Origin: Parcubacteria group bacterium
GTDB taxonomy: Bacteria; Patescibacteriota; Minisyncoccia; Moranbacterales; UBA2206
Reading direction: 5' to 3'
Assembly (NCBI GenBank): GCA_041661275.1
Contig: JBAZUU010000001.1
Span: 101,057 to 165,056 of the forward strand
DNA length: 64,000 bases
Shown here: positions 458 through 46,015 of the stretch, in pieces
Position numbering within the stretch: position 1 is the stretch's first letter
Layout of the letters: each line of letters begins with the position of its first letter
Notes under the pieces: model-generated
What the model was told of the DNA's origin: nothing
What the model saw: the letters and a program-made list of their open reading frames with translations, nothing else
Database searches by the model: none
Translations under genes and position numbers: made by a program

Positions 458-1526
458 GCCAATTTATCCCAAATTAAGCGAAAGGCAAGTTGCCATTGTT
501 GATTTTGCCAAGAAGCAGATATCCTTTCAAACAAAGGACGTTTTTTCTGAAACCGGAAAAAAATTCAATGTCAAGCGACTGACTATTGTTCGCGACCTGT
601 CATTTTTAGAAGAAAATGACATATTGAAAAAGCGCGGAAAAGGAAGATCGATAGCATACGAGATTTCCCGGAAATATTTGGCGCTTGAGAAAATCGACAG
701 TAAAAAATATTTCTCTCTCCCTTTTTTAAATAGAAATGCCAAGCCGTTATTTGATGACGAAATTTTTTCTATATTGAATGACGGTCTTTTTTCACCGGAA
801 GAAATAGAAAAGTTGGAAGAAATAAATAAAAGGTATGTCGAAACAAATAGCAAGCTAGCTAAAGAAAGTCCGGTGATTCTTCGAAAAGAATGGGAACGTT
901 TGATAATAGAATTGTCATGGAAGTCTTCAGAAATTGAAGGTAATACTTATACCTTGCTCGAGACCGAGGCGCTCCTTCGCGAAATGCGTTTCGCGAAAGG
1001 TAAGGATAGGGCGGAAGCACAAATGATTTTGAACCATAAAAAAACGCTTGATTTCATTTTGGCGAATTATGATTACTTTGCCAATATCGACCTTGATAAA
1101 ATTATAAAAATCCATGAGATGCTGACGGAAAAAGTGGATATAAAAAAAGATTTTAGAGATCATCCAGTGGGAATCACCGGAACGATTTACCGGCCTTTGC
1201 CTAAAAGAAAAGATATTGAAACGGCTATGAAAAAATTGACGGAAGTTCTTGAGGCGGTAGCAAATCCATATGTCAAATCTTTTATTGTTCTCGTTATGAT
1301 TGCTTATATCCAACCATTTGAAGACGGAAACAAACGCACGTCGCGCATTGTCGCCAATGCCATTTTACATGCCCATGGCAAATCTATGCTATCCTATCGC
1401 AACGTCGACGCAATCGAGTATAAAAAAGCGATGCTTCTTTTTTATGAGCAAAATAATATTTCATATATAAAAGAAATATTCATTGCTCAATTCGAGTTCG
1501 CGGTGAAAAACTATTTTGAACAATAA
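456..1526 (+). CDS. Fic/Doc-family protein with N-terminal winged-HTH; core motif is QPFEDGNKRTSR (catalytic His replaced by Gln)
   Basis: Translation contains IAYIQPFEDGNKRTSRIVANAIL, aligning to the Fic motif HPFx(D/E)GN(G/K)R but with Q for H. The N-terminal 60 aa look like a wHTH. 356 aa. Confidence 0.75.
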   Translation: MPIYPKLSERQVAIVDFAKKQISFQTKDVFSETGKKFNVKRLTIVRDLSFLEENDILKKRGKGRSIAYEISRKYLALEKIDSKKYFSLPFLNRNAKPLFDDEIFSILNDGLFSPEEIEKLEEINKRYVETNSKLAKESPVILRKEWERLIIELSWKSSEIEGNTYTLLETEALLREMRFAKGKDRAEAQMILNHKKTLDFILANYDYFANIDLDKIIKIHEMLTEKVDIKKDFRDHPVGITGTIYRPLPKRKDIETAMKKLTEVLEAVANPYVKSFIVLVMIAYIQPFEDGNKRTSRIVANAILHAHGKSMLSYRNVDAIEYKKAMLLFYEQNNISYIKEIFIAQFEFAVKNYFEQ

Positions 1527-2210: not shown

Positions 2211-3414
2211 AATTCACAAAAGTCAGCGCGATTCCTTTTTGCTCCGCGCGGCCAGTGCGGCCGATGCGGTGGATATAGTCGTCATATGTCGCCGGAAGAT
2301 CAAAATTGATGACATGGCTGACGTTCGGAATATCCAAGCCTCTTGCCGCTACATCAGTGGCAACCAAAATTTCGACAACATTATCCTTGAACATTTTGAG
2401 CGCGCGTTGCCTTTTCGCTTGAGATTTATTACCATGGATACATTCTGATTTGAAACCCTTGAGATGTAAATTTTTTGACAACTTGTCCGCGCCGTGTTTG
2501 GTACGGGTAAAAATCAACACTTTTTGAAATTCCACTTGGTTCAAAAGATCGTGAAGCACTTCCGATTTATCCTTGCCCATAGTCACCCGGACGATATCCT
2601 GGTCAACAAGAGCCGAGGTTTCTCCGGTCTTTATGGAAATGCGTTCTGGATTATTCAGAAATTGTCTTGTCAAATTCTCGATCTCTCTGGAAAACGTAGC
2701 GGAAAAAAGCATCGTCTGTCTTTTTTTGGAGACGAGAGATAAAAATAATTTCACATCCGGCAAAAATCCCATATCAAACATCCGGTCAGCTTCGTCCAAA
2801 ACGATATTATTAAATCCTGATAAATTAAGCACCTTTCGGGTGATCAGATCTTTTAGACGTCCGGGTGTACCGATAACCATATTATGCCGCAATCGGAGTT
2901 CGGAAATTTGTCTTCCGATGTTAGCGCCACCAACAACAACCACGGAATAGAGGCGAAGCGCACGAGCCAAAGCGATAAATTCGTCCTGGATTTGGATAGC
3001 CAGCTCGCGAGTCGGAACAACGATAAGCACTTTTTCCCTTGGGTTCAAAAGTATTTTGTTAATCATCGGGATAAGAAAAGCGGCTGTTTTTCCAGTGCCG
3101 GTATTAGCCAGACCAATAACATCTCGCCCGGAAAGAACTGCCGGAATAGCCATATCCTGGATAGGAGTAGGCGTGACATATCCGCGGTTTTTTATCGTCT
3201 GCTTCAGTTCGCGTCGGATCTCAAGATCATTAAATGTATAACGAGGCACAAAAACTTCGACAGGTTTTAGTGCTTCAGTTTTATTGATAAAACGATTGAT
3301 GTCGATCGCATCGCCAGAAAATCGTCCTCTTTTTGGATGATTGTAACTAGTTCCTGGCGGTCTTTTCCAACCGCTAGCGGCGCGCGCCAAACGCGCGTTG
3401 TTTCTTCTTCTCAT
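2209..3414 (-). CDS. DEAD-box ATP-dependent RNA helicase (RhlE/CshA-like) with Arg/Gly-rich N-terminal extension
   Basis: Motifs TPTPIQ (Q-motif), ANTGTGKTAAF (Walker A), DEADRM, SAT and HRIGRTGRAG-like motif VI in order. 401 aa. Confidence 0.9.
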   Translation of the reverse strand: MRRRNNARLARAASGWKRPPGTSYNHPKRGRFSGDAIDINRFINKTEALKPVEVFVPRYTFNDLEIRRELKQTIKNRGYVTPTPIQDMAIPAVLSGRDVIGLANTGTGKTAAFLIPMINKILLNPREKVLIVVPTRELAIQIQDEFIALARALRLYSVVVVGGANIGRQISELRLRHNMVIGTPGRLKDLITRKVLNLSGFNNIVLDEADRMFDMGFLPDVKLFLSLVSKKRQTMLFSATFSREIENLTRQFLNNPERISIKTGETSALVDQDIVRVTMGKDKSEVLHDLLNQVEFQKVLIFTRTKHGADKLSKNLHLKGFKSECIHGNKSQAKRQRALKMFKDNVVEILVATDVAARGLDIPNVSHVINFDLPATYDDYIHRIGRTGRAEQKGIALTFVN

Positions 3415-3619
3415 TTACTTTGTCTCAAGCTCGAAGTCCAACTTTGCACCTTACAATTTTGCGCCGGAGCTTAAACATAAAAATTAATATTTTATGTTTA
3501 TATACTCCGACCATTTCAAGAAAGAAGTATTAACATAAAAAGCAAGTATATCACTCCTGACTCATCTTGTCAAGGCATCGATAGAAAAATCCAAAAAACA
3601 ATGTTAGGATAGGTTTATT

Positions 3620-4888
3620 ATGAACACCAGCAAAAAAGAGGAATATTTTGATATCGTCGTCATCGGTGGCGGGGCGGCCGGGATGATGGCAGCGATAGCT
3701 GCCAGTTTTGATGGCGCAAAAATGGCTCTGATCGAGAAAAATAGGACTCTTGGAAAAAAATTGCTTCTCACTGGCAACGGCCGGTGCAATATCACCCAGA
3801 TTAGTTTCGATACCCGCGGATTTATTGAAAAAATTGGCAAAAATGGCAGATTTCTCTTCTCTTCCCTGGCGGCTTTCGGTCCCAATGAAACAGTGGAATT
3901 TTTTGCCAGTTTAGGCCTTGAAGTGAAAACAGAAAAAAATGGCCGGGTTTTCCCAGCAAGTGACAAAGCGCAGGATGTTCTTCATGTCCTTGAAAAAGCC
4001 CTGAAAAAGAATGGGGTGAAAATTATGTTTAACCATAATGTCCTTGATCTAAAAATAAAAGATAAAAAAATAGAATACGTAGAGCTGGAAAACAAAAAGA
4101 TTTATGCCGATAATTTTATCATTACGACTGGAGGAAAATCATATCCGGTGACCGGCTCCACTGGAGACGGATACCTGTGGCTCGCGCGTATCGGACATAA
4201 AATAAATTCCCCCACTCCCGCTCTTGTGCCTGTAAAAATAGTTGAATCCTGGATCAAGGATCTGCAAGGAATAAGTCTTGCGCAGACTGGAATAAAATTG
4301 ATCCAAAATGGCAAAAAGGTGAAACTGGATCCGGGAGAGATTATTTTCACCCATTTTGGGATGAGCGGACCGGCTATCATTAATGCCAGCAAAACTATTG
4401 GCGAATATCTAAAAAAAGGCAAGGTATTCCTGGAAATTGACCTGCTCCCCACTCTGGGCATAGCCGAACTGGAAGAAAAATTAAAAAAAGACTTTGAGAT
4501 ACATAAGAAAAAAGATCTAAAAAATTATTTATCAGAAATATTTCCACGAAAGTTAGCAGTAAAATTGATAGAACTGTCCGGAATAGAAATTACCAGAAAA
4601 ATTTACACAATTGCAAAATCAGAAAGAAACAACTTGGCCCGACTGATAAAAAATATTTGTGTAACTGTCAACGCGCTTTTGGATTTCGGGAGCGCCATGA
4701 TAACTTCCGGCGGAGTGGATCTAAAAGAAGTTGAACCCAAGACAATGCGTTCAAAGATCGTCCCTAATCTATTTTTAGCCGGAGAAATTTTGGATCTCGA
4801 TGGCCCGACTGGCGGATATAATCTGCAGATCGCCTGGACAACAGGACGCACGGCTGGCATCAGCGCGAGAGACAAAAAAGGCCTCTAA
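3620..4888 (+). CDS. BaiN/HI0933-like NAD(FAD)-utilizing flavoprotein (aminoacetone oxidase family)
   Basis: N-terminal FAD fold VVIGGGAAGMMAAI plus TGNGRCN motif typical of the HI0933/YhiN family. 422 aa. Confidence 0.8.
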   Translation: MNTSKKEEYFDIVVIGGGAAGMMAAIAASFDGAKMALIEKNRTLGKKLLLTGNGRCNITQISFDTRGFIEKIGKNGRFLFSSLAAFGPNETVEFFASLGLEVKTEKNGRVFPASDKAQDVLHVLEKALKKNGVKIMFNHNVLDLKIKDKKIEYVELENKKIYADNFIITTGGKSYPVTGSTGDGYLWLARIGHKINSPTPALVPVKIVESWIKDLQGISLAQTGIKLIQNGKKVKLDPGEIIFTHFGMSGPAIINASKTIGEYLKKGKVFLEIDLLPTLGIAELEEKLKKDFEIHKKKDLKNYLSEIFPRKLAVKLIELSGIEITRKIYTIAKSERNNLARLIKNICVTVNALLDFGSAMITSGGVDLKEVEPKTMRSKIVPNLFLAGEILDLDGPTGGYNLQIAWTTGRTAGISARDKKGL

Positions 4889-4910
4889 TAAGCCATGCCA
4901 TAAACATCGC

Positions 4911-4939
4911 TTGACAAATGCCCATAATAGACATATAAT
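4911..4939 (+). promoter_or_regulatory. Consensus sigma-70 promoter for cspA (TTGACA 4911-4916, 17 nt, TATAAT 4934-4939), followed by an approximately 100-nt 5'UTR
   Basis: Perfect -35/-10 hexamers with 17-nt spacing. Long leaders are typical of cold-shock genes. Confidence 0.65.
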
Positions 4940-5039
4940 TGGTTACAAGTCCCAATAAGCATGCAGGTAGAAGACTAGTCGAACTTTTTTGCACAGCTTC
5001 CAATGGTACTAAATTTAATTAAAATATTGTCTATTACAA

Positions 5040-5243
5040 ATGGAACAAGGAACAATCAAAAGACTGACTGACCGAGGATTTGGCTTCATTGCCAGAGAAG
5101 GTCAGGACAAAGATCTTTTTTTCCACTCAAAAGAACTTCAGGGCGTGACCTTTGAAGAACTGCGAGAAGGTGACAAAGTTCAGTTCGAAGTGGCTGAAGG
5201 CCCTAAAGGACCGAACGCTGTCAACGTATCAAAAGTTGCCTAA
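5040..5243 (+). CDS. cspA: Cold-shock protein (CspA family, S1-like cold-shock domain)
   Basis: RGFGFI and LFFHxSEL RNP-like motifs. 67 aa. Confidence 0.9.
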   Translation: MEQGTIKRLTDRGFGFIAREGQDKDLFFHSKELQGVTFEELREGDKVQFEVAEGPKGPNAVNVSKVA

Positions 5244-5261
5244 ACACTTTTGAAGTATTTA

Positions 5262-5298
5262 ACAAAAACCACCCTGTGAAAGCGGGGTGGTTTTTTGT
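5262..5298 (+). terminator. Rho-independent terminator (CCACCC ... GGGTGG plus T-run)
   Basis: Hairpin 5269-5290 followed by TTTTTT. Confidence 0.8.
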
Positions 5299-5309
5299 TT
5301 TATTATCTT

Positions 5310-5415
5310 AGGACTCGCGCGTTGACCGCTATTCCAACTTTTCAAAAAGCTAAGCTTTATGGACAAGCCCAGGCATTTCAAAAAGCTTAGCTTTGAGGAA
5401 ATGCTAACGATAGTA
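5310..5415. repeat. Copy A of an approximately 105-bp intergenic repeat (AGGACTCGCGCGTTGACCGCTATT...TTTCAAAAAGCTAAGCTTT...TTTCAAAAAGCTTAGCTTTGAGG...)
   Basis: About 85 percent identical to 7251-7358. Each copy contains two sub-repeats TTTCAAAAAGCT(A/T)AGC(T/C)TT and follows a rho-independent terminator. Confidence 0.85.
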
Positions 5416-5455
5416 GCTGCGCAAATCCTGTATTGAAAAAATATTCGGGGATTTT

Positions 5456-5956
5456 CTATTTCACCGGAATATTTTTCTCCATTTCTTTTTGAAATTCTTC
5501 CGGATCAGGCATGCTTTCCCGAAAATCCTGTGATTTTTTCTCCCACTCTTCGCTTTCTTTACTAAATTTATCAGCACTTTCCTCTATCTCATTTAGGATC
5601 GAGTTATTATTTATCCGATTATTTATTTCTTTTTTCGCTTCCCTTATTCCCCACCATCCGAGACCAACTACGGCAACTAATATAAGAATGACGATCAAAA
5701 GACATCCGCCGATGATCCACGGCCAAGGACTGCTGGATTTAGGAGGCACAGGAGTTGCTGGCGGCGCAGCTGGCGCGGGCGGGTAATAAACAGGAGGAGG
5801 GGTCGGAGTTGGTTGAGGTGCTGGCGGCGGCATTACTGGAGCTAGTGGTGGAGCGGGCATCGGTTGCGGCGTCATCGGAGCTGGTGCCATCGGTTGAGGA
5901 ACCACTGGCGGTGGCGCCACCGGAGCTGGCGCGGGAGCTTGGTTTTGTTGTTCCAT
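5456..5956 (-). CDS. Proline-rich single-pass membrane protein (hypothetical)
   Basis: N-terminal PAPAPVAPPPVVP low-complexity region, one TM helix, acidic C-terminal tail. 166 aa. Codon-level repeats. Confidence 0.5.
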   Translation of the reverse strand: MEQQNQAPAPAPVAPPPVVPQPMAPAPMTPQPMPAPPLAPVMPPPAPQPTPTPPPVYYPPAPAAPPATPVPPKSSSPWPWIIGGCLLIVILILVAVVGLGWWGIREAKKEINNRINNNSILNEIEESADKFSKESEEWEKKSQDFRESMPDPEEFQKEMEKNIPVK

Positions 5957-6507: not shown

Positions 6508-6765
6508 GTGAGTAAAAATGGCTTTTTTTCAACAACTGAAGCAGCAAAAATACTCGGAATCAGCCGGATTGCCGTGTTTAACCGTGTAAAAAGAGGCTCT
6601 CTGAAAGCTATCCGGATAGGCAAAAACTGGGCAATTCCCAAGGAAGAGCTGGAAAATAATCTGGGTCGTCCGCTAAGCGAGGAGGAAAAACGAATATTGT
6701 TAGAGGGTGTCCGTAAAGTTATTGCCGAATATGGAGAAACTTTGCGGAGACTAGGCAAAGAATAG
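6508..6765 (+). CDS. HTH_17/excisionase-type DNA-binding protein; putative antitoxin of the downstream Doc toxin
   Basis: STTEAAKILGISRIAVFNRVKRGSLKAIRIGKNWAIPKEEL is a MerR/excisionase-family HTH. Stop is 2 nt before the Doc start. The start codon is uncertain (GTG 6508, TTG 6502 or GTG 6439). Confidence 0.6.
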   Translation: MSKNGFFSTTEAAKILGISRIAVFNRVKRGSLKAIRIGKNWAIPKEELENNLGRPLSEEEKRILLEGVRKVIAEYGETLRRLGKE

Positions 6766-6767
6766 TT

Positions 6768-7190
6768 ATGATCAAAAGACTGACGATCATCGAAATAGAA
6801 TTCATCGCTCACGCGATGGCCAGGGAAACATTGGCGTGGAACGAACCGATCCCCGACTTTTCAACGCGCTATCCGGGAAAACTGGAAAGTTGCCTGGCGA
6901 TGCCGTTTCAAAAATTTTCCAGAAAAAATTTATATGAAGGTCTTATTGGAAAGGCAGCCATTATGTTCTATCTGATGATTAAAAATCATCCCTTTCAAAA
7001 CGGCAACAAGCGTATCGCGGTCACTACGCTTCTTTTGCTTCTCTACAAAAATGGAAAGTGGATCAGCGCTTCCAATGAAACTTTATATCGGTTCGCTGTT
7101 CTCGTCGCCCAAAGTCCGGCTGAACTGAAAAAAGAAATTGTCATTCTCATTGAAAATTTCTTGGAGAAATATGTGAAAGATGCAAAATAG
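6768..7190 (+). CDS. doc: Doc (death-on-curing) family toxin, Fic fold with HPFQNGNKR motif
   Basis: Canonical Doc motif NHPFQNGNKRIAVT. 140 aa. Adjacent to a small DNA-binding partner. Confidence 0.8.
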   Translation: MIKRLTIIEIEFIAHAMARETLAWNEPIPDFSTRYPGKLESCLAMPFQKFSRKNLYEGLIGKAAIMFYLMIKNHPFQNGNKRIAVTTLLLLLYKNGKWISASNETLYRFAVLVAQSPAELKKEIVILIENFLEKYVKDAK

Positions 7191-7207
7191 GGCAGCTGGA
7201 ATTTCAA

Positions 7208-7245
7208 TTAGAGATTAAAAAACCGGCATCGCCGGATTTTTGTGT
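7208..7245 (+). terminator. Rho-independent terminator (CCGGC atcg CCGG plus T-run)
   Basis: Hairpin AAAAACCGGCATCGCCGGATTTTTGTG after the Doc stop. Confidence 0.7.
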
Positions 7246-7250
7246 CTTTA

Positions 7251-7358
7251 AGGACTCGCATGTTTGCCGCTATTTTAGCTTTTCAAAAAAGCTAAGCTTT
7301 AGGGAAAAGCCCCGGCGTTTCAAAAAACTTAGCCTTGAGGAGATGCCAACGGTAACAA
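7251..7358. repeat. Copy B of the approximately 105-bp intergenic repeat (see 5310-5415)
   Basis: Direct repeat in the same orientation as copy A. Together they bracket the 5416-7250 segment carrying the HTH-Doc pair. Confidence 0.85.
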
Positions 7359-7374
7359 ACGCACGAGTTCCATT

Positions 7375-7539
7375 TCATTTCCTCCAATCGCTGATTTCCA
7401 ACTTTCCCCTGCCTTTGTCTTTGATGACTAGCTTCTGCTTTTCCTTCCAGCCATATTTTTCCACCATCTCCTTGGGGATGGTCACGGAATAGCTATACAC
7501 GCTGGATTTTTTGAGTTTGATGATGTTTTTTTCTTTCAT
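7375..7539 (-). CDS. AbrB/MazE/SpoVT-type swapped-hairpin DNA-binding protein (54 aa, below the ORF-track cutoff); orphan antitoxin-like
   Basis: Manual translation MKEKNIIKLKKSSVYSYSVTIPKEMVEKYGWKEKQKLVIKDKGRGKLEISDWRK. The VTIPKE motif fits the AbrB/MazE fold. ATG at 7539, stop at 7375. Confidence 0.5.
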   Translation of the reverse strand: MKEKNIIKLKKSSVYSYSVTIPKEMVEKYGWKEKQKLVIKDKGRGKLEISDWRK

Positions 7540-7733
7540 ATTTTTTATTTTAATTATTTTTTAGAGGCCTCTATAGTTGCTTCTATTTTATCTTACCACC
7601 GCCCGGTTGGGAAATCCAGAAGTGATGAATACTTGAAAAAATTCAAATTTTGACGGATAATACAGCAGCGGGATGGCATTCAACTGGAAATGAATTAACC
7701 CGCCCCTCCTAAATATTATTGTATTAAGTTTAT

Positions 7734-8387
7734 ATGGACGATATTCAGTTGGAAAAATTATTAAAAGATTTAATTTCGCTTCCCCACAATGAAGAAATTT
7801 CCAAAGCATTAAGAAAAGAAGTTAAGATGTACCCCGAAGTTGCCATCCGTGAATTTGTTGCCAACGCGCTTATCCATCAAGATCTTTCGATATCCGGCGC
7901 GGGACCAATGATAGAAATATTTGATAATCGTATAGAAATTACCAATACTGGTGAGCCACTAATTGAGACTGATAGATTTATTGACCACCCGCCTCGCTCT
8001 CGAAATGAAGACATGGCATCTTTTATGCGGCAAGTTGGTGTCTGTGAAGAAGGAGGCACTGGTATCGATCGGGCATTAATTAACATAGCCTTATATCAAT
8101 TACCCGCTCCTAGTTTTGAAAAGTTTGACAACTTCACTAAGATTACCTTGTACGCTCATAAGGATTTAAAAGAAATGACATTGGATGATAAAGTACGCGC
8201 CTGTTTTCAACATTGTGTTTTAAAGCATATTGAAAAATCAAGAATGACAAACGCAACTCTCAGAGAACGACTTGGTATCGGCGAAAAAAATTATCCGGCC
8301 GCCTCCGCAATTATCAAGGCAACAATAAAAAAAGGATTCATTAAAGAATCGGAAAAGCCAAAAGAATATGTTCCAATTTGGGCTTAA
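7734..8387 (+). CDS. HATPase_c_4-type (RecG C-terminal-like) putative transcriptional regulator lacking the AlbA_2/Schlafen N-domain
   Basis: IREFVANALIHQD ... IEITNTGEPL ... RSRNEDMASFMRQVGVCEEGGTGIDR matches the PF13749-like ATPase-like DNA-binding family. 217 aa. Confidence 0.6.
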   Translation: MDDIQLEKLLKDLISLPHNEEISKALRKEVKMYPEVAIREFVANALIHQDLSISGAGPMIEIFDNRIEITNTGEPLIETDRFIDHPPRSRNEDMASFMRQVGVCEEGGTGIDRALINIALYQLPAPSFEKFDNFTKITLYAHKDLKEMTLDDKVRACFQHCVLKHIEKSRMTNATLRERLGIGEKNYPAASAIIKATIKKGFIKESEKPKEYVPIWA

Positions 8388-8492
8388 AAACCATGTAGTG
8401 ATTTTGTCAACTTTATTGCTATTTTACCAAAAAATGCCTTATATATGCCAAATATCATGTAGTAGCCATGTAGCACAATTCAACTAATAACC

Positions 8493-9635
8493 CTAAAAAT
8501 CCTTAAACCCCACCCCCCTTAAATCCTTTTTCACCCTATTCACAAATTTCCCAAACTGCCTGGCTTTGTTTCTTTTTTCCAGCTTGCTCGATTCGTTGTG
8601 CCGGGCTTCTTTTTGGAGAGTGATATAGTTTTGAAACTTTCCCGCGTCCAGCGTGCCGGACTTTGCGGCAGCGAGTACCGCGCAGCCGGGTTCGTGAGTG
8701 TGTGTGCAGTCATCAAACTTGCAATCATTGGAAAGAGTCGCTATTTCATCAAAGATACTATCAACGCTGGAAAGCGTATCGCCAAGACCTACTTCACGGA
8801 CACCGGGATTGTCGATGACAATGCCGCCGGAATCCCCGCCTGCGCCTAGGCTTCGGCGGGCAGGCAGAAAATACATCTCGCGTCTTGTGGTCACATGTTT
8901 TCCTCTGTCGGAATATTCACTCACGTCTCCGGTCTTGATAGTCCCTTCGCCAAGTAAAATATTGATAAGCGATGACTTCCCGACGCCAGACGACCCCAAA
9001 AAACAATATGTCTTTCCTTTGATAATATTATCTTTTAGCGCTGCTAGTCCTTCGCCGGTTTTGGTGCTAGTGGCGAACACGCTCACATCGCCCAGTCTTG
9101 TTTTTATCTCCAAAAGTTTTGAATTCAATTCTTCTTTGGAAATTAGATCAATTTTATTAAGGATGACAGCCGGCTCGATGCCACCGTCTCTTGCTATGGC
9201 AAAATATCTCTCAAATCGGTTGAGATTGTAATCCCGGCCGACCGACTGGACGACATAGGCCGTGTCGATGTTGGCCGCTATCATCTGAATTTCATTTTTT
9301 TCGCCAGACCTGTCACGGTCACCAAACTTTCTTTTCATCACAGTACGCCTGGGCAAAATGGCGCGGATGACCGCTTGTCCCTCACCGCTCTCTTCGATCG
9401 CCACCCAATCACCGACAGCTGGATAGTCCTCTTTCGATCTGGCGTTATGTCGAATTTTTCCGGTAATTTTGGCCAGATACGTTCCATCAGTATTTTTGAC
9501 ACTGTATGCACCTTTCGTTTCCGTTGTCACCCGAGCCACAGCAAAACCATCAAGGCCAAGTTTTGCCCGATTGGATTCGAAGAACGGGCCATACCCCAGA
9601 TCTTCCATCGTCAATTTTTTGCTTTTCTTTTCCAT
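8493..9635 (-). CDS. rsgA: Ribosome small-subunit-dependent GTPase A
   Basis: Circularly permuted GTPase order (NKIDL ... GSSGVGKSSLIN ... DxxG) plus C-terminal zinc motif CKFDDCTHTHEPGC. 380 aa. Confidence 0.9.
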   Translation of the reverse strand: MEKKSKKLTMEDLGYGPFFESNRAKLGLDGFAVARVTTETKGAYSVKNTDGTYLAKITGKIRHNARSKEDYPAVGDWVAIEESGEGQAVIRAILPRRTVMKRKFGDRDRSGEKNEIQMIAANIDTAYVVQSVGRDYNLNRFERYFAIARDGGIEPAVILNKIDLISKEELNSKLLEIKTRLGDVSVFATSTKTGEGLAALKDNIIKGKTYCFLGSSGVGKSSLINILLGEGTIKTGDVSEYSDRGKHVTTRREMYFLPARRSLGAGGDSGGIVIDNPGVREVGLGDTLSSVDSIFDEIATLSNDCKFDDCTHTHEPGCAVLAAAKSGTLDAGKFQNYITLQKEARHNESSKLEKRNKARQFGKFVNRVKKDLRGVGFKDF

Positions 9636-36006: not shown

Positions 36007-37193
36007 AATTTTTTCTTCTCCATCACCATATTATAGTACTGCTCGCCATGTTTTTCAAAAGGATTATCCCTATCAATGACAAGCCCTTGCTTTTCATACA
36101 TTGAAATGGCAGGATTTGAGACGCGCGTAATGGCTTTTATCCTAAACTGCCTCGCCATTTCCGGCAAAACCGAACCAGTGAAATATTTGCCAATGCATAA
36201 ACTATTCACTTCTTGGTCAACATTCAAAGATCCGGCGTAAACTTCCTCGTCATTTAATTTCTCAAACCGGCAAAAAGCCGCCAGCTTATCCTGAAATTTC
36301 AGAGTATAGACGATCTGTCCCGATAGCCCATCATCCATTTCTTTTTTAAAATCCCCGATGACCGCCTCCGCCGCTTTTGGATTATCTGGAAAAACCACTT
36401 CCCGATAATTTTTTTCCACCATCTTCAACATTTCCTCTTTTTCCTCCTCGCTCAATTTTATTTCCTGGCCATTTTCATCATTATCGCCAATGACTCTTCT
36501 TTCCAATTTCAGGTTTTTTATCATTTCAAAATCGATTTTCTCTCCCGCTGCTTTGGCTGATTTCAGCATTATTGAAAGCATTATTATATCAGCATGATGA
36601 TCTTTTTCTAGTCTCTCATATAGATCCTTTATTCTATTTTCTTCTTCAGCATTATTAATTTCTTGAAATATTTCGGTAAGGATATAGGCGTATAAAAAAT
36701 ATTCAGATTTTTCGAGGCCTTTTGACGAAATATAATCTATAATATCCTTTGAGGTCTTGAAAGCATCTCCCTTTTTAAAAATTTCCAAACAATCTTCTGA
36801 ATATTTAAAAAAGAAATTCTCGTCTTTTTTTATTTCACTCAACACAAATTCGGATGATTTATTGTCCTTATTTATCTCCGCCAGCTGATGCAAAATATTT
36901 TTATTATTTCTGGCTAAATTACCGGACTTATCCATCACTATCATTTCTTGCTGTATTGTTTTTTTTATCTGTTCATTCGCTTCCGGAAACCATCTCTGGA
37001 TATCCTCATTAATAGCCAATTGTTCATCGGAAATATAGTGCTTTTCGCCATTTTCAATTAGATCCCTAATTTTCATTTCATTCTCCTCGAAGGTTTTAAT
37101 TAAGGCCAACCTCCGAGATTCATTGGTTCCAAGTTTATTTTCAATCGTTTTTGATTGTTCTCTTATTGGCCATTCGTTCATAATTGCTTTCAA
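36003..37193 (-). CDS. Hypothetical protein (Glu/Lys-rich helical region plus possible C-terminal GNAT-like fold), overlaps the ruvA start by 4 nt
   Basis: 396-aa ORF with no diagnostic motif. The C-terminal approximately 100 aa weakly resemble an acetyltransferase fold. Confidence 0.4.
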   Translation of the reverse strand: MKAIMNEWPIREQSKTIENKLGTNESRRLALIKTFEENEMKIRDLIENGEKHYISDEQLAINEDIQRWFPEANEQIKKTIQQEMIVMDKSGNLARNNKNILHQLAEINKDNKSSEFVLSEIKKDENFFFKYSEDCLEIFKKGDAFKTSKDIIDYISSKGLEKSEYFLYAYILTEIFQEINNAEEENRIKDLYERLEKDHHADIIMLSIMLKSAKAAGEKIDFEMIKNLKLERRVIGDNDENGQEIKLSEEEKEEMLKMVEKNYREVVFPDNPKAAEAVIGDFKKEMDDGLSGQIVYTLKFQDKLAAFCRFEKLNDEEVYAGSLNVDQEVNSLCIGKYFTGSVLPEMARQFRIKAITRVSNPAISMYEKQGLVIDRDNPFEKHGEQYYNMVMEKKKL

Positions 37194-37199
37194 TGATTA

Positions 37200-38300
37200 C
37201 ATCCCAATAATACCATCCGTCAGAAATAATAAAAAGAGGCGAGAATTGCTTGTGGTAAGCATACTCGCCTATTTGTGGTTTTACGCCGATTGTTTCATTT
37301 CTTTAGGAGCGGCGATATCTCCTTTTTGGGTGTAGCTCACAATGAGTTACACCCATTCGTCCTCTTTGTCAAAGAGGACGCAGCTCTTTCTTTCAAACCC
37401 GTGCGGACAACCCTCGCAAGAGGGCTACCCACACGGCGCAGGCTGGCGGCACGGGCACTCGTCCGAGTGCTCGTACAGCCAGCATCTGCTTGTTACCTGA
37501 TCCTCCCGGGCCCAATACTGGCGCCCGGGAACCCAATCGTAATCCTCACCGGTAAACACGTGTTTACCGGCTTCCTGAAATAAGTGCATTATTTCCATTT
37601 TTCCTCCTCGCCCCGACTCGCGTCGGGGCATTTTGATTGTTTTTCTCACCTCACCCACCCAAAATAATTTTTCCAAATTATCTTAAGTGGATGAGGGAGA
37701 ATTTCTCAAAGAACTCCTGGATTAACGATATAATCCACAAAAATGCCAGTGATATCATTTGATTTAAGAGAAGAGAGAGTTTCTTTAGCAAAATCAAATT
37801 AGCGATATCACTGGCATATTTCCAGAGACGAATTATTTATTCATCCTGGACTCTCTTCCCTTAGACGCAATAAATTGCGTCTCTACGATATTCGATTTTT
37901 AAATTTCAGCTTTATTAGAAAGCCTGCTCCTAGTTCCAAATGAATTGGAACTAGGGACCACTTTCTATCCCGACGATGGCTCGTTCGGGAGAGAAACAGA
38001 TTTGTTATCCATTCATCCGCTATCTTTTGAGAATCTCTCTTCTCTTGGATGAATATTGTATACCCTCTGTTTCCAGTGCCATTTATAGGCCTCTTTCATC
38101 TTAGGGATAATCGAGACACTATTTATATGTAATGTACGTTGGTTACGTTTGCTCTCTCTTCCCTATCTCATCGTAACAACACAGTATATCATAAAAAAAC
38201 CAAATTGTAAATAATATTAGGTACATTTTTACGGTTTTGTTACTATTTTACCTTACATAAAACATTATTTTGGCTTATTATCGTTTATATATTGTCATAA
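37200..38300. ncRNA. Candidate large structured non-coding RNA or other structured non-coding element, unclassified; the strand is undetermined
   Basis: 1.17 kb with no credible ORF. The 37230-37640 core is GC-rich in an AT-rich genome. Perfect hairpins at 37236-37270, 37328-37354, 37358-37380, 37549-37570 (22-bp perfect palindrome), 37611-37628, 37743-37817 (21+ bp stem), 37864-37881 and 37930-37954. Long-range complementarity between 37697-37711 and 38013-38026. Confidence 0.4.
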
Positions 38301-38306
38301 TTGATA

Positions 38307-38335
38307 TTGACATTTTTCTCGCCGTATGCTATAAT
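38307..38335 (+). promoter_or_regulatory. Consensus sigma-70 promoter (TTGACA 38307-38312, 17 nt, TATAAT 38330-38335) driving the ORF6N gene
   Basis: Perfect hexamers and spacing, 28 nt upstream of the ATG at 38363. Confidence 0.7.
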
Positions 38336-38362
38336 GGCTATATAAAGCCATAAAATAAAACT

Positions 38363-38878
38363 ATGCCTGAAGTAAGCCAACAATTAATCCCCCACGAGCG
38401 GATAATCGACAAAATATACCTAATAAGAGGCCAAAAAGTTATGTTTGATAGAGATTTGGCTGAACTTTATGGAGTAGAAACAAGAGCTTTAAAACAGGCA
38501 GTAAAAAGAAACATAAAGCGCTTTCCGATCGACTTCATGTTTCAGTTAAATAAGAAGGAGTTGGAAATTTGGAGATCACAAATTGTGATGTCCAAAGGCG
38601 ACCAAAAGGGATTAAGATGGCTGCCCATCGTATTCACTGAACAAGGAGTTACTATGCTTTCGGCAGTGCTTAAAAGCAAAACGGCTATAGCTATAAGCAT
38701 TCAGATAGTCAGAACATTCGTTAAGCTTCGCGAAATGTTGGCAACCCACAAAGAAATGCGCGAAAAGATTGAAAAATTAGAAAAGAGCCAAAATAAAAAC
38801 TTTAAAATTATTTTTGAAATAATCGCTCGTCTAATGAAAGAGGACGCGCTGCCAAAAGAGAAAATTGGATTCAAGTAA
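38363..38878 (+). CDS. ORF6N-domain (KilA-N/Bro-N-related, phage-associated) DNA-binding protein
   Basis: MFDRDLAELYGVETRALKQAVKRNIKRFPIDFMFQL and RWLPIVFTEQGVTMLSAVLKS are typical of ORF6N. 171 aa. Confidence 0.7.
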   Translation: MPEVSQQLIPHERIIDKIYLIRGQKVMFDRDLAELYGVETRALKQAVKRNIKRFPIDFMFQLNKKELEIWRSQIVMSKGDQKGLRWLPIVFTEQGVTMLSAVLKSKTAIAISIQIVRTFVKLREMLATHKEMREKIEKLEKSQNKNFKIIFEIIARLMKEDALPKEKIGFK

Positions 38879-39781: not shown

Positions 39782-40051
39782 ATGCCGATAAAAAAAGCTG
39801 CTAAGAAATACATGCGAGTGACTAAGAGAAAGACCGAAAAGAACCGAAAAATTAAGGGAAATTTTCGATCTGCCATAAAAGCGACACAATCCGCAATTGC
39901 CGGAGGGGAAAAAGACAAGGCGCAGGAATCTTTGAAAAAAGCGGTTGTCGCCCTCGATAAGGCCGTCCAAAAGAAAGTCATCCACAAAAATATGGCCGCC
40001 CGGACGAAATCGAGATTAAATAAGACCGTAAAGGAAATGGTAAAGAAATAA
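39782..40051 (+). CDS. rpsT: 30S ribosomal protein bS20
   Basis: Basic helical 89-aa protein with the bS20 pattern (KKAAKKYMRVTKRKTEKNRKIKGNFRSAIK). Confidence 0.85.
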   Translation: MPIKKAAKKYMRVTKRKTEKNRKIKGNFRSAIKATQSAIAGGEKDKAQESLKKAVVALDKAVQKKVIHKNMAARTKSRLNKTVKEMVKK

Positions 40052-40099: not shown

Positions 40100-40238
40100 C
40101 CGTCATCCTGAGCGAAGTTCCAAATATATTGGGACGTAGTCGAAGGATCTACTACAAATTGTCACTAGTGCTAATATTTGGCAGATTCTTCGACTGCATT
40201 CCCCCGCTAAGGCGGGGTCATTCCGCTCAGAATGACGG
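40100..40238. repeat. MITE-like nested-palindrome element copy (CCGTCATCCTGAGCG ... GTCGAAGGATCTAC ... CAGATTCTTCGAC ... CGCTCAGAATGACGG)
   Basis: Terminal 15-bp inverted repeats and an internal inverted repeat. Ends exactly at the holA stop codon (40239-40241). Confidence 0.85.
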
Positions 40239-41210
40239 TCAAAGCTCCGCCACGAACTTATCTAAAGCCATTCTCATATCAACCTTGCCAGTCTTCACCG
40301 CATGGTCAAACCGCGCCAACTTGTTGTATATTTTTTTTAACCGCTCGAAAGTAAAAACTCTTGTTTGCGCCAGTGTTTTTCTGATAACAAACGGATGCAT
40401 TTTGGTGACTCGAGATATCTCATATTCACTGCTCATTCCTCTTTCCACGAGATCAGCGATCCTTATCATATTTCTAAATTGATAGACAATCATAGAAAAA
40501 ATATAGAACGGATCGTCGCCTTTTTCCATATTGTCATGAAGAAGTTTCATAGCTGACTTTTTATCATTGGCTCCAAGAGCGTCAATAGCTGAAAAAATAT
40601 TACCATCAATTTTCGCTTTGACCAGAAGCTCCACATCTTTGTCAGTTATCATGACTCCGTCCGAGTAACTTATCAGTTTTTGAATTTCTGAATCTAAAAT
40701 ATTAGTATCTGAACCAACAAAAGCGATTAGTTTTTCAAGAGCCGTTTTGGAAATAGAAGCTTTTTCGTCCAATTCTTTCATCCTTTTTAAAATCCATCCC
40801 GCCAATTTTGCGCCTTCCAATTTTGCGAACTCTTGTTTTTTAATTTCACTCTTTGACAATAGCAATTTAAATAAACTGTTATTTTTCTTCGGATTTTCCA
40901 CTTCCCAAAAAATAACCACGAGATCCAAGTCAGCCAGAATATTTTTATTTTCTTTTACATATTCTGCTATTTTTTTCTGATCATCCAACGCGCCACTGGA
41001 AATAATGTTTTTGACAATCACCAATCTTTTAGGCGCCAAAAGATTAGCCATGCCGAAAACACTCAAAACATCGTTCAGTTTAGCTTTTTCATTCATGTCA
41101 AACAAAGACAAGCCCGATCCGGACTTGTCGCTTTGAAGATATTTATTTTTGATTTCTTTTAGTTTGTGGAGAGATCTGAATGAATCTTCTCCATACAGAA
41201 ATATAATCAT
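40239..41210 (-). CDS. holA: DNA polymerase III delta subunit
   Basis: N-terminal IIFLYGEDSF, AAA-lid and C-terminal helical domain layout of HolA. 323 aa. Confidence 0.7.
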   Translation of the reverse strand: MIIFLYGEDSFRSLHKLKEIKNKYLQSDKSGSGLSLFDMNEKAKLNDVLSVFGMANLLAPKRLVIVKNIISSGALDDQKKIAEYVKENKNILADLDLVVIFWEVENPKKNNSLFKLLLSKSEIKKQEFAKLEGAKLAGWILKRMKELDEKASISKTALEKLIAFVGSDTNILDSEIQKLISYSDGVMITDKDVELLVKAKIDGNIFSAIDALGANDKKSAMKLLHDNMEKGDDPFYIFSMIVYQFRNMIRIADLVERGMSSEYEISRVTKMHPFVIRKTLAQTRVFTFERLKKIYNKLARFDHAVKTGKVDMRMALDKFVAEL

Positions 41211-44431: not shown

Positions 44432-46015
44432 ATGCTTACAAAAGTAGCTTTGATCCAACCGGTGACGGCAGCGGGTAAATCGTTAGGTATTTTCAAATCG
44501 CCTGAATCCATTCAGGCCTTGGCTGGCCAACTGCAAAAGCTGGGCTATCAAGTTAAAATGTTTCATTCGGCCGACAGCGACGAGCTTCGCTGGCAGATCC
44601 ACGGGTTTCTACCGCACTTCATTTGCATTTCGACCATGACCGCCAATTTTCCTGAAGGCCACAAAATTGCGCAAGCAATCAAAAATTCCAAATACTTCCG
44701 CCGGGTAAAAATCATTTTGGGTGGCTGGCATGCTTCTGGCTGTGTAAAAGCCTATGAATCCGGCCAGGAAAAAGAAAGTCTGCGAGAAATTCTTAATCGT
44801 GATTCGCCATTCGACTATGTGGTGGCTGGTGAGGGCGAAGAGGTTTTGCCAAAACTGATCGAAGCAATAAAGAACAATTTCGGAATCATGCATCTAAAAG
44901 GCGTGAGCTATTTTAGTGGAGGAGAGATTCAACTTGGCGGCTCCACACCTCGGATAAATAATCTGGATGGCGTAGCCATGCCTAGCTGGGAAGGTCTTGA
45001 GGTTAATCAATACCGCGATAAAAGAAATGGTGCCCTTGATTTGAGCGTCCATTTCAACCGCGGCTGCCGGTTCAAATGCGCCTACTGCGCAACAGCTTCA
45101 GTTTATGGCCGGGGCATCCGAACTACTCCTGCAGAGCAGGCGTTTGAGTACATCGAATTTCTGGCGCAAAAGTTTAAACCACAGGTCATCACCTTCACGG
45201 ATGAAGATTTTTTCGCTAATCTGCCGTGGGTGAGACAATTGGTAAATTTGCTGCAAAAAGAAAACTTCCATCACAAGTATGGAATTTCTTTCGACACTTT
45301 TGCCAGCGTCAATGATCTACATCGCTTGCAGAGAAATGGGCATAGCCAACTACTGCATCAGATGAAAGCCACGGGATTTAATTCCTTCACGATCGGAATA
45401 GAATCATTCAGCGTCCCCACATTAAAAAAATACAACAAGGAGTTGATGATTCTGCCGACCATGCTTCTGGAACAAAAAATATTTTACAATGAAGCAAAAA
45501 GCTTCACTAAGAGACTAATGCTTCATAACCACTACCTTTCAACTGTTCAACAAGCTATAAATTTCGCCCATGAACACGGATTTCTGGTGGTGGGAGATTA
45601 CATCCTGGGCAACCCGGATGAATCTGTCGACGCTGTACTCTTCGGTTTCCGCTCGTTCAAAAGCCTTTGCCATCTGATGCTGGCCTACCTGCCGGTGTAT
45701 ACACCATTTCCTGGCACAGCTCTCTGGTTAGAAGCCTACACTTCCGGACAACTGGCACGAAAGGATGATGGAAAAATCAACTGGGGAAAATTCGATGCCA
45801 GCGGCAGCGCTCTTGATCTCGGATACGATATTGCCTCGCTGCGCAATAACCTGGAAATTGAATTCTATACTTCCGATCGATATGCCGAAGACATGTTGGC
45901 TATGATCGAAAAAAATCCTGCCATCAAAAAATTCTTTCTCGACCGCCTGAAATATCTCGACCAGACTTATCCCGATGATCCGCGCATCATCAAACAACTC
46001 GCACATTTACAATGA
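44432..46015 (+). CDS. B12-binding-domain radical SAM protein
   Basis: N-terminal B12-binding-like Rossmann region, CxxxCxxC cluster motif CRFKCAYC, radical SAM core. Start at ATG 44432 with RBS AAAAAGGAG 7 nt upstream. 527 aa. Confidence 0.65.
   Translation: MLTKVALIQPVTAAGKSLGIFKSPESIQALAGQLQKLGYQVKMFHSADSDELRWQIHGFLPHFICISTMTANFPEGHKIAQAIKNSKYFRRVKIILGGWHASGCVKAYESGQEKESLREILNRDSPFDYVVAGEGEEVLPKLIEAIKNNFGIMHLKGVSYFSGGEIQLGGSTPRINNLDGVAMPSWEGLEVNQYRDKRNGALDLSVHFNRGCRFKCAYCATASVYGRGIRTTPAEQAFEYIEFLAQKFKPQVITFTDEDFFANLPWVRQLVNLLQKENFHHKYGISFDTFASVNDLHRLQRNGHSQLLHQMKATGFNSFTIGIESFSVPTLKKYNKELMILPTMLLEQKIFYNEAKSFTKRLMLHNHYLSTVQQAINFAHEHGFLVVGDYILGNPDESVDAVLFGFRSFKSLCHLMLAYLPVYTPFPGTALWLEAYTSGQLARKDDGKINWGKFDASGSALDLGYDIASLRNNLEIEFYTSDRYAEDMLAMIEKNPAIKKFFLDRLKYLDQTYPDDPRIIKQLAHLQ

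Follow-up and report, generated by a model that had tools for sequence, protein, structure and literature searches.

RNAIII of Staphylococcus aureus is a multi-hairpin regulatory RNA that encodes delta-haemolysin and targets Shine-Dalgarno (SD) regions with short, C-rich UCCC seeds. The sponges CsrB, RsmY and RsmZ repeat a short purine-rich motif in the loops and linkers of a multi-hairpin RNA that ends in a terminator. GOLLD, ROOL and OLE are large orphan bacterial RNAs that form homo-oligomeric assemblies via RNA-RNA contacts (PMC12286853). Here we describe a structured non-coding RNA (ncRNA) of about 440 nucleotides (nt) on the minus strand (37738..38180) of a 64,000-nt stretch of DNA from a Parcubacteria group bacterium (contig JBAZUU010000001.1; this whole stretch is called the window below), whose closest named relatives are Candidatus Moranbacteria metagenome-assembled genomes. 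The RNA lies in the right part of a gap (37200-38300) that the original prediction had taken as a whole for one novel, large structured RNA recalling GOLLD and ROOL. A public gene caller places no gene in this gap either.

The RNA resembles RNAIII in its length of several hundred nt, its own promoter and intrinsic terminator, its chain of hairpins and a pyrimidine-rich putative antisense seed in loops, among them that of the terminator hairpin. It differs in lacking sequence or structure homology, in carrying a CU-rich loop of 13-14 nt instead of UCCC seeds, in having no conserved open reading frame (ORF), and in possessing three internal purine-rich sites (GA sites) complementary to this loop, which RNAIII does not have; an RNAIII-like dual-function regulator was rejected because of the missing conserved ORF and the CU-rich seed. 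As in the CsrB/Rsm sponges, a short purine-rich motif is repeated in loops and linkers of a multi-hairpin RNA with a terminator at its end. However, the A(N)GGA motif of the sponges is not conserved here (the first GA site of the relative L005 reads GAGAAGAGAGAA), and the motif comprises 11-13 nt with an exact complement in the same RNA. The GA sites show no conserved GGA across the homologues, for which reason a protein sponge of the CsrB/Rsm type was also rejected, and the long motif together with its exact complement points to RNA-RNA pairing and not to protein sequestration. With GOLLD, ROOL and OLE the RNA shares the character of a large orphan structured RNA, and the complementarity of GA sites and CU loop makes self-association conceivable. 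It differs from them in architecture, in size (about 440 nt versus about 500-800 nt or more), in the missing score at E ≤ 10 and in its absence from viral contigs, and these families are relevant only as precedents for self-associating large orphan RNAs.

The structured RNA and its conservation

Two transcription units probably follow each other on the minus strand of the gap. Both would lie downstream of a strong, conserved promoter, which is divergent from the promoter of the ORF6N and TrmB genes on the plus strand. The first unit is the ~440-nt RNA, in which seven covarying helices are followed by a variable linker and a terminator. The promoter (38183..38211, minus strand) reads TTTACA-17-TATACT, matches the consensus at 10 of 12 positions and carries a TG one base upstream of the -10 element; its -10 box, ATGATATACT, is unchanged in L002 and L005, and an equivalent promoter is retained in L003, L006, L055 and L059. 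At the other end, an intrinsic terminator (37739..37817, minus strand) comprises a ~23-bp stem (37817-37804 with 37756-37743), a CU-rich loop and a U5 run (37743-37739). This architecture, a long hairpin followed by U5-7, folds likewise in all six sequences. Its outer stem covaries and includes U.G pairs on the sense strand, while the sequence of the inner stem differs in each homologue yet always forms. We infer transcription and both RNA ends from the promoter and the U-run.

Syntenic loci of relatives, referred to by their locus numbers, were collected via the flanking GNAT and TrmB proteins plus one DNA-pattern scan. Homologues of the RNA are present in L002, L005/L046, L042, L055 and L059/L061 (six sequences, Moranbacteria-like). 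A metagenome scan with a 19-mer returned 15 matches, of which only L042 and L046 are real homologues, and the GNAT-like neighbour used as query against genome contigs found no relatives. The segment 37906-38355 is 85% identical to L002, compared with 70-83% for all flanking coding sequences.

Structure prediction with RNAalifold on four sequences resulted in seven helices with 64 pairs and 99.2% of cells paired. Both sides had changed in 22 of the 64 pairs, in contrast to 7.6±2.1 in column shuffles (none of 500 was as good) and to 0-3 pairs in slid controls, in which the partners were moved by 1-3 columns. With six sequences, 94.1% of cells were paired and 28 of 63 pairs were compensatory; shuffles gave 13.9±2.2 and slid controls 2-6. 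All helices are given for the minus strand. Helix P1 (38177-38172 with 38147-38142) carries the first GA site in its apical loop. The long-range helix P4 (37992..38074; GGAAACAGA / UCUGUUUCU) shows compensatory changes in five of nine pairs, with 98% of cells paired in the six sequences, and encloses helix P5 (38054-38047 with 38018-38011), whose loop carries the second GA site. In helix P6 (37990-37968, loop AGCCAU), seven of eight pairs have changed on both sides among the six sequences, and P7 follows at 37967-37916. The strands UAGAAAGUGGUC and AGCAGGCUUUCUA of the P6/P7 region (37916..37990) are invariant, and conserved U.G pairs there mark the minus strand as the RNA strand. Invariant G.U/U.G pairs and the lower minimum free energy (MFE) give the same strand for the RNA overall.

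No ORF is conserved within the RNA: the longest sense ORFs comprise 20-45 codons and are different in each homologue, and in L005 a C-to-U change that compensates a helix creates a stop codon. A hidden peptide gene was rejected on this basis. The locus thus has what is expected of a stand-alone ncRNA gene, namely its own promoter and a Rho-independent terminator bracketing the conserved block, compensatory structure and no conserved frame; its anatomy, conservation, covariation and strand are shown computationally.

Several points weigh against this assignment. There are just six homologues from one narrow clade, and the covariation signal is partly shared ancestry, although the slid controls indicate that ancestry is not the whole signal. 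Moreover, transcription and the RNA ends are read from sequence. Finally, the syntenic relatives L003 and L006 are without the RNA, which is consequently not essential.

A search of the 64-kb window with Rfam 15 at the gathering threshold yielded only two tRNAs. At E ≤ 10 on 37000-38500, the lowest E-value belonged to beta_tmRNA (17.1 bits versus a threshold of 84) and the highest bit score to CRISPR-DR43 (21.9 versus 35), and there was no match to RNase P, GOLLD or ROOL; the homologous loci gave nothing. The families considered were RNase P a/b, tmRNA, 6S, SRP, GOLLD, ROOL, OLE, HEARO, raiA, group I/II introns, T-box and riboswitches. ARAGORN found only tRNA-Ser and tRNA-Gly in the window. 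Known RNA families, tRNA and tmRNA explain none of the folding in the gap, and the RNA is previously undescribed and without an Rfam counterpart. In the viral contigs, the specific two-block RNA pattern had 0 matches, the small protein encoded downstream of the RNA (see below) had none, and 31 matches to a 16-mer were taken as chance. A viral origin is not supported by these scans, in which two-block pattern and small protein both gave 0.

These data also bear on the extent of the element. It is very improbable that the whole of 37200-38300 forms one GOLLD/ROOL-like, multi-domain RNA of ~1.1 kb closed by long-range helices. The hairpin density is indeed continuous over the whole gap and read-through of the internal terminator is possible, but this conserved terminator splits the region at 37817-37739, and only the right half is conserved as RNA, whereas the left half is swapped for unrelated ORFs in relatives. 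The proposed closing helices are misplaced and not conserved: the true arms lie at 37697-37710 and 38026-38039 (86%), would bridge the two units, and neither of them is conserved in the homologues. GOLLD and ROOL remained without a score even at E ≤ 10, nor was there a match in viral contigs that would tie the region to them; ORF6N is a variable neighbour. What remains of the original prediction is a novel structured RNA, backed by the missing Rfam match, the promoter, the terminator and covariation; it measures about 440 nt instead of 1.1 kb, is encoded on the minus strand and occupies the AT-richer right part.

The RNA tolerates lineage-specific insertions resembling expansion segments. L042 has an extra domain of ~70 nt in the P5 loop (about 1000-1070, minus strand) and L005 a 14-bp hairpin inserted in the terminator loop (about 4330-4400, minus strand). 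In L059, an SD sequence and a Lys-rich mini-ORF of nine codons (MKKKKFFKN), which may be a leader peptide, directly follow the RNA terminator (about 2168-2139, minus strand).

GA sites and the CU-rich terminator loop

The apical loop of the terminator is a CU-rich 13-14-mer, CUCUCUCUUCUCUU (37779-37766), which is nearly invariant among the homologues. The same RNA contains three copies of the complementary sequence, AGAGAAGAGAG, one each in the loops of P1 and P5 and one in the linker that leads to the terminator. On the minus strand, GA1 (38151..38165, P1 apical loop, purine-rich) can form 13 contiguous pairs with the terminator loop at -21.6 kcal/mol. GA2 (AAGAGAAGAGAGA, 38030..38047, P5 loop) complements the CU loop exactly over 13 nt (-21.2 kcal/mol). 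GA3 (37850..37864, purine-rich, just upstream of the terminator) reaches -19.4 kcal/mol and is found in all six homologues. Four of the five matches to the GA motif in the window are located inside the RNA, while about one is expected by chance in the whole window. In every homologue, two to three sites at conserved positions pair with the RNA's own loop at -17 to -24 kcal/mol, compared with about -10 to -16 for shuffled loops.

A concerted change was observed in L059. Its loop reads ...CUUCUUCG, and its GA1 and GA3 read CGAAGAAG.../AGAAGAAG..., so that loop and sites changed together. Cognate loop pairing in L059 amounts to -38.6 kcal/mol, non-cognate combinations reach only -30 to -33 kcal/mol, and the converse is true as well. 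This is evidence, from a single lineage, that loop and GA sites pair, either within one molecule or between molecules. Pairing in vivo, like every functional role discussed here, is an inference. The RNA would act by base pairing via the CU seed of its terminator loop, and the GA sites would serve as built-in partners that mask the seed intramolecularly or join molecules together. We offer this stand-alone base-pairing RNA, with the CU loop as active seed and the GA sites as internal or intermolecular partners, as a hypothesis held at clearly less than even confidence. Two observations speak against it: the co-change comes from one lineage, though at two sites, and the 64 kb yielded no external target for the CU loop, the one weak antisense match inside a gene (3852-3862) being unconvincing. 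We know of almost nothing on RNA-based regulation in Candidate Phyla Radiation (CPR)/Patescibacteria, for which the locus supplies a covariation-supported RNA family with an explicit, testable GA:CU pairing hypothesis.

The main rival is a cis-acting role. The ~440-nt element could be a riboswitch- or attenuator-like leader whose terminator gates read-through into the cassette and the GNAT-RuvA genes further downstream, with termination efficiency set by pairing of GA3 with the CU loop or by a factor bound to the GA sites. The RNA is always found upstream of genes on the same strand, and in L003 and L006 the same promoter drives cassettes directly. GA3 also lies about 5-45 nt before the 5' arm of the terminator, and a GA3:CU helix would enclose this arm. 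Nevertheless, we consider a leader unlikely. Since the downstream genes differ in every genome, no gene is shared that such a leader could regulate. A 12-bp GA:CU helix would be much less stable than the terminator stem (about 21-23 bp plus U-run), and no antiterminator that covaries against the stem arms can be seen. A seven-helix core of 280 nt is large for an aptamer, and no riboswitch model scores.

Alternatively, GA and CU boxes could act at the DNA level, as iteron- or operator-like sites for TrmB or the ORF6N/KilA-N protein, and the palindromes of the gap could be cruciforms or template-switch products. Four boxes of 11-13 bp are indeed situated within 420 bp next to two genes for DNA-binding proteins, and co-evolution with a protein would be another explanation of the concerted change in L059. 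In contrast, the boxes always lie in single-stranded loops of covarying helices, and two of the RNA-bearing genomes have no ORF6N. Together with the pairing asymmetries described in the next section, this makes a DNA-level function hardly probable, and base pairing of the RNA remains the reading that we favor for the boxes.

A folded small gene in a variable hotspot

The left part of the gap differs in composition. The GC content is 0.56-0.585 at 37300-37600 and 0.28-0.37 in the flanks, confirming the GC-rich core noted earlier, and all eight hairpins listed for the gap were found where they had been placed, by direct reading and in the inverted-repeat list. Folding energies were compared with dinucleotide shuffles. 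The segment 37222-37732 reached z = -11.6 on the minus and -11.3 on the plus strand and the segment 37733-38176 z = -8.3 and -7.4, respectively, whereas ordinary genes nearby ranged from -1.4 to +1.1. In a sliding scan with 200-nt windows, which covered the window up to about position 45,600, the segment 37201-38100 was the longest strongly folded run, with nine consecutive windows at z < -4. Across the gap, the minus strand was consistently more stable than the plus strand and had more G.U pairs.

The GC-rich core (37230-37640) had been interpreted as the signature of a structured RNA and the gap as free of any credible ORF, neither of which held up. The core is not conserved as RNA. It is part of a small protein-coding cassette with a hyper-structured mRNA. 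A 57-codon ORF (MEIMHLFQEAGKHVFTGEDYDWVPGRQYWAREDQVTSRCWLYEHSDECPCRQPAPCG; 37425..37598, minus strand), tiled with hairpins and with a GC content of 57%, starts 4 nt after the SD sequence GAGGAGG (37609-37603) and is the inner part of an 83-codon minus-strand ORF that the original prediction had discounted. An exhaustive HMMER scan of 1.84 billion representatives identified a homologue of the same length, P0008 (57 amino acids, E 4.4e-12, 50% identity by BLASTP), which shares the pattern HLFQE...YWA.E..V...CWLYEHSD.CPC with the product of the window ORF; a second match, P0009 (670 amino acids, E 1e-4, repetitive), was judged spurious. No Pfam match was obtained for the 57-residue protein.

The second unit (37735->37225) would be an accessory cassette made up of the hairpin H1, the hairpin H2 abutting the SD sequence, the ORF for a small Cys-rich protein, 3' hairpins and a terminator with an ACCAC loop, all on the minus strand. 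H1 (37649..37701) marks its 5' end, with about 22 bp, four G.U pairs and the sequence CUUAAG, and overlaps a weak promoter-like site (37709->37680). In L003 (5012-5123; 81% identity), the H1 region stands before a different ORF and has a compensatory change from A-U to G-C. H2 (37629-37610) is the GC hairpin GCCCCGAC-GCGA-GUCGGGGC; the order of hairpin and SD sequence is also found before cassette ORFs in L002, L003, L005 and L006. Behind the stop codon, the 3' untranslated region (UTR; 37224..37424, z = -5.0) contains four further hairpins and then the terminator AGGCGAG..UACCAC..CUCGCCU (37270-37237), followed by a U-run (37236-37224); the GNAT-like gene has its ATG (37181) 43 nt further on.

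The window ORF has an MFE of -82 kcal/mol, corresponding to z = -6.3 in dinucleotide shuffles and -5.5 in synonymous-codon shuffles. The gene of its homologue in L053 provides a natural unfolded control from elsewhere: it has 37% GC, an MFE of -31 kcal/mol and z = +1.0. The sense strand of the window ORF is the more stable one and forms 6 G.U pairs, twice as many as the antisense strand (3). Both coding homology and excess folding are shown computationally. The cassette mRNA would be selected at synonymous and non-synonymous sites for back-to-back local hairpins, and such selection for mRNA folding would give rise to the GC-rich, hairpin-dense island.

In relatives, a variable hotspot extends from the divergent promoter zone to the next housekeeping gene and holds different small ORFs in each case. 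The GC-rich stretch itself is not conserved; only the 5' UTR (37703-37593) matches L003, where it stands before an unrelated ORF. Pfam searches with the relatives' cassette proteins left essentially all of them as orphans. In four of eight cassette ORFs, folding z-scores were between -6 and -13 in dinucleotide shuffles, the other four being mild (-1.6 to -3.5), and synonymous shuffles of the over-folded ORFs gave -4.8 to -9.8. The dinucleotide and synonymous values were -13.4 and -9.8 for L005 cas1, -7.2 and -6.6 for L005 cas2, and -6.5 and -4.8 for L003 cas1. Over-folding at the hotspot is common, but not universal. The sense strand of L005 cas1 folds at -241 kcal/mol with 23 G.U pairs, its antisense strand at -189 kcal/mol with 5, and a sense-strand excess of G.U pairs (3-4.6-fold) was observed in three cassette ORFs of relatives. 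Many stems of the gap are perfect Watson-Crick helices, as a DNA-level origin would predict, but conserved G.U pairs and the sense/antisense energy asymmetry exemplified by L005 cas1 are properties of RNA. Palindromes at the DNA level and template switching were rejected on the sense-strand G.U excess. Hairpin density and GC enrichment appear to reflect RNA-level selection on mRNAs, and not an ncRNA gene or DNA palindromes.

It is also conceivable that the GC-rich island is a structured ncRNA or RNA decoy, in which the 57-codon frame is incidental or a decaying relic and the whole transcript acts as a folded RNA. The extreme local folding on the sense strand is in line with this idea, as are the hairpins that run on past the stop codon into the 3' UTR. 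In addition, a word-indexed protein search with the ORF found nothing, and an open frame of 57 codons is not rare by chance in sequence of 57% GC and hence weakly significant; just one homologue is known, at about 50% identity. These last points weigh against a coding cassette as such. On the other side, the homologue has the same length and shares the motif CWLYEHSD-CPC at E 4.4e-12, the SD sequence and ATG are optimally placed within a 5' module found in relatives ahead of ORFs (80-174 codons) that are clearly coding, and the folding survives a protein-preserving shuffle, as a dual constraint on coding and structure predicts. We therefore regard a decoy as rather unlikely, a shade more so than the leader, and keep to a coding cassette with a folded mRNA. 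Coding sequence tiled with sense-strand local hairpins beyond composition is also known from single-stranded RNA phages (Leviviricetes). The locus differs from these in being bacterial chromosomal DNA among housekeeping genes, without replicase, coat or maturation genes.

The ACCAC-loop terminator occurs once in the window and recurs after cassettes in L002, L003, L005 and L006. The loops read (U/G/A)ACCAC(A), and a single-stranded AAAACCAC box is often found a few nt upstream; the positions are 37270-37224 in the window, 7915-7950 in L002, about 4470-4490, 4915-4950 and 5395-5440 in L003, about 2560-2590 in L005 and about 3735-3765 in L006. The motif could be a protein-binding or recombination site. 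In L005, both cassettes are followed by near-duplicate 3' flanks of ~250 nt (3121-3499 and 2484-2790, minus strand), whose hairpins differ by compensatory changes, e.g. UCGAG...CUCGA versus GCCUG...CAGGC.

This arrangement is reminiscent of integron cassettes with attC sites and of phage 'morons': a variable array of small, mostly orphan ORFs stands behind one fixed promoter, close relatives differ in the number and identity of their cassettes, and a hairpin of conserved shape closes each of these. Unlike integrons, it lacks GTTRRRY/RYYYAAC core sites (the hairpin flanks read AUAGGCGAG...CUCGCCUCUUUUU), U-runs follow the hairpins, and each cassette has its own SD sequence and 5' hairpins. Furthermore, the gene table contains no integrase within ±10 kb. 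The U-runs and the sense-strand G.U asymmetry identify the hairpins as RNA terminators and not as single-stranded DNA recombination sites. An attC array was rejected on the missing core sites and integrase and on the RNA-level asymmetry. A repeated mobile element or miniature inverted-repeat transposable element was rejected as well, because Tandem Repeats Finder returned 0 rows for the segment, no multi-copy direct repeats were found in it, and no further copy exists within the 64-kb window. Tandem or interspaced conserved repeats, as expected of a CRISPR or TIGR-type array, were likewise not observed.

Joining both units, we tentatively propose a broader and more doubtful reading, namely a new RNA class, carried by a lineage of Moranbacteria-like CPR bacteria, in which a CU seed and three co-evolving GA loops form a self-masking riboregulator or a loop-loop polymerising RNA at the head of an undescribed accessory-gene hotspot whose every cassette mRNA is selected to be almost fully double-stranded. 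If true, this would point to an undescribed RNA-level process, e.g. resistance to a single-strand-specific RNase or toxin, recognition of double-stranded RNA or gene capture from RNA replicons. The protein-coding mRNAs are folded beyond what composition or codon usage explains, specifically at one hotspot and on the sense strand, and if this folding is adaptive, it would indicate an unrecognised selective pressure on mRNA structure in reduced genomes. The locus also illustrates that, within an AT-rich genome, a GC-rich island can be a misleading marker of ncRNA.

Promoter zone, neighboring genes and other folded segments

On the plus strand, the perfect sigma-70 promoter described in the original prediction is indeed present at 38307..38335 (TTGACA-17-TATAAT, 12/12 matches, TG-extended); it is followed by the ORF6N gene and drives the ORF6N-TrmB-rpsT unit. 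The divergent promoter zone 38185-38355 shares 85% identity with L002, 81% with L003 and about 70% with L005/L006, and is kept at about 70-85% among relatives even where the downstream content differs on both sides. Operator sites for the TrmB-family regulator encoded next to it are probably located in this zone.

The genes next to the gap are a 392-residue GNAT-like gene and ruvA on the minus strand, and ORF6N, the TrmB-family regulator and rpsT on the plus strand. ORF6N (38363-38878), located between promoter and TrmB, is present in the window, L006, L054-L057 and L059 and absent in L002, L003 and L005; it is a variable neighbor, missing from two of the six genomes with the RNA. In L042 and L054, an AAA-ATPase/DUF4143 gene takes up the ORF6N zone. 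The ORF6N start is ambiguous, either 38363, which is not preceded by an SD sequence, or 38441 according to the public gene caller. For the GNAT-like gene, the real start in the window is the ATG at 37181 and not the TTG at 37193 given by the ORF finder. In L002 this gene, encoding 39x amino acids, exists as a tandem duplicate (6572-7759 and 8001-9188).

The gap is not the only long one in the window, as spacers of tens of bp, claimed earlier for the genes of this stretch, are not universal. A second long ORF-free stretch extends over 4889-5455, where 200-nt windows at 5201-5500 have z of about -7 and no Rfam hit was obtained; it could be another unannotated RNA or cassette-like element. A single 200-nt window with z = -9.6 was found at 40101-40300, between the convergent genes rpsT (39782-40051, plus strand) and holA (40239-41210, minus strand), and is probably a pair of back-to-back terminators.

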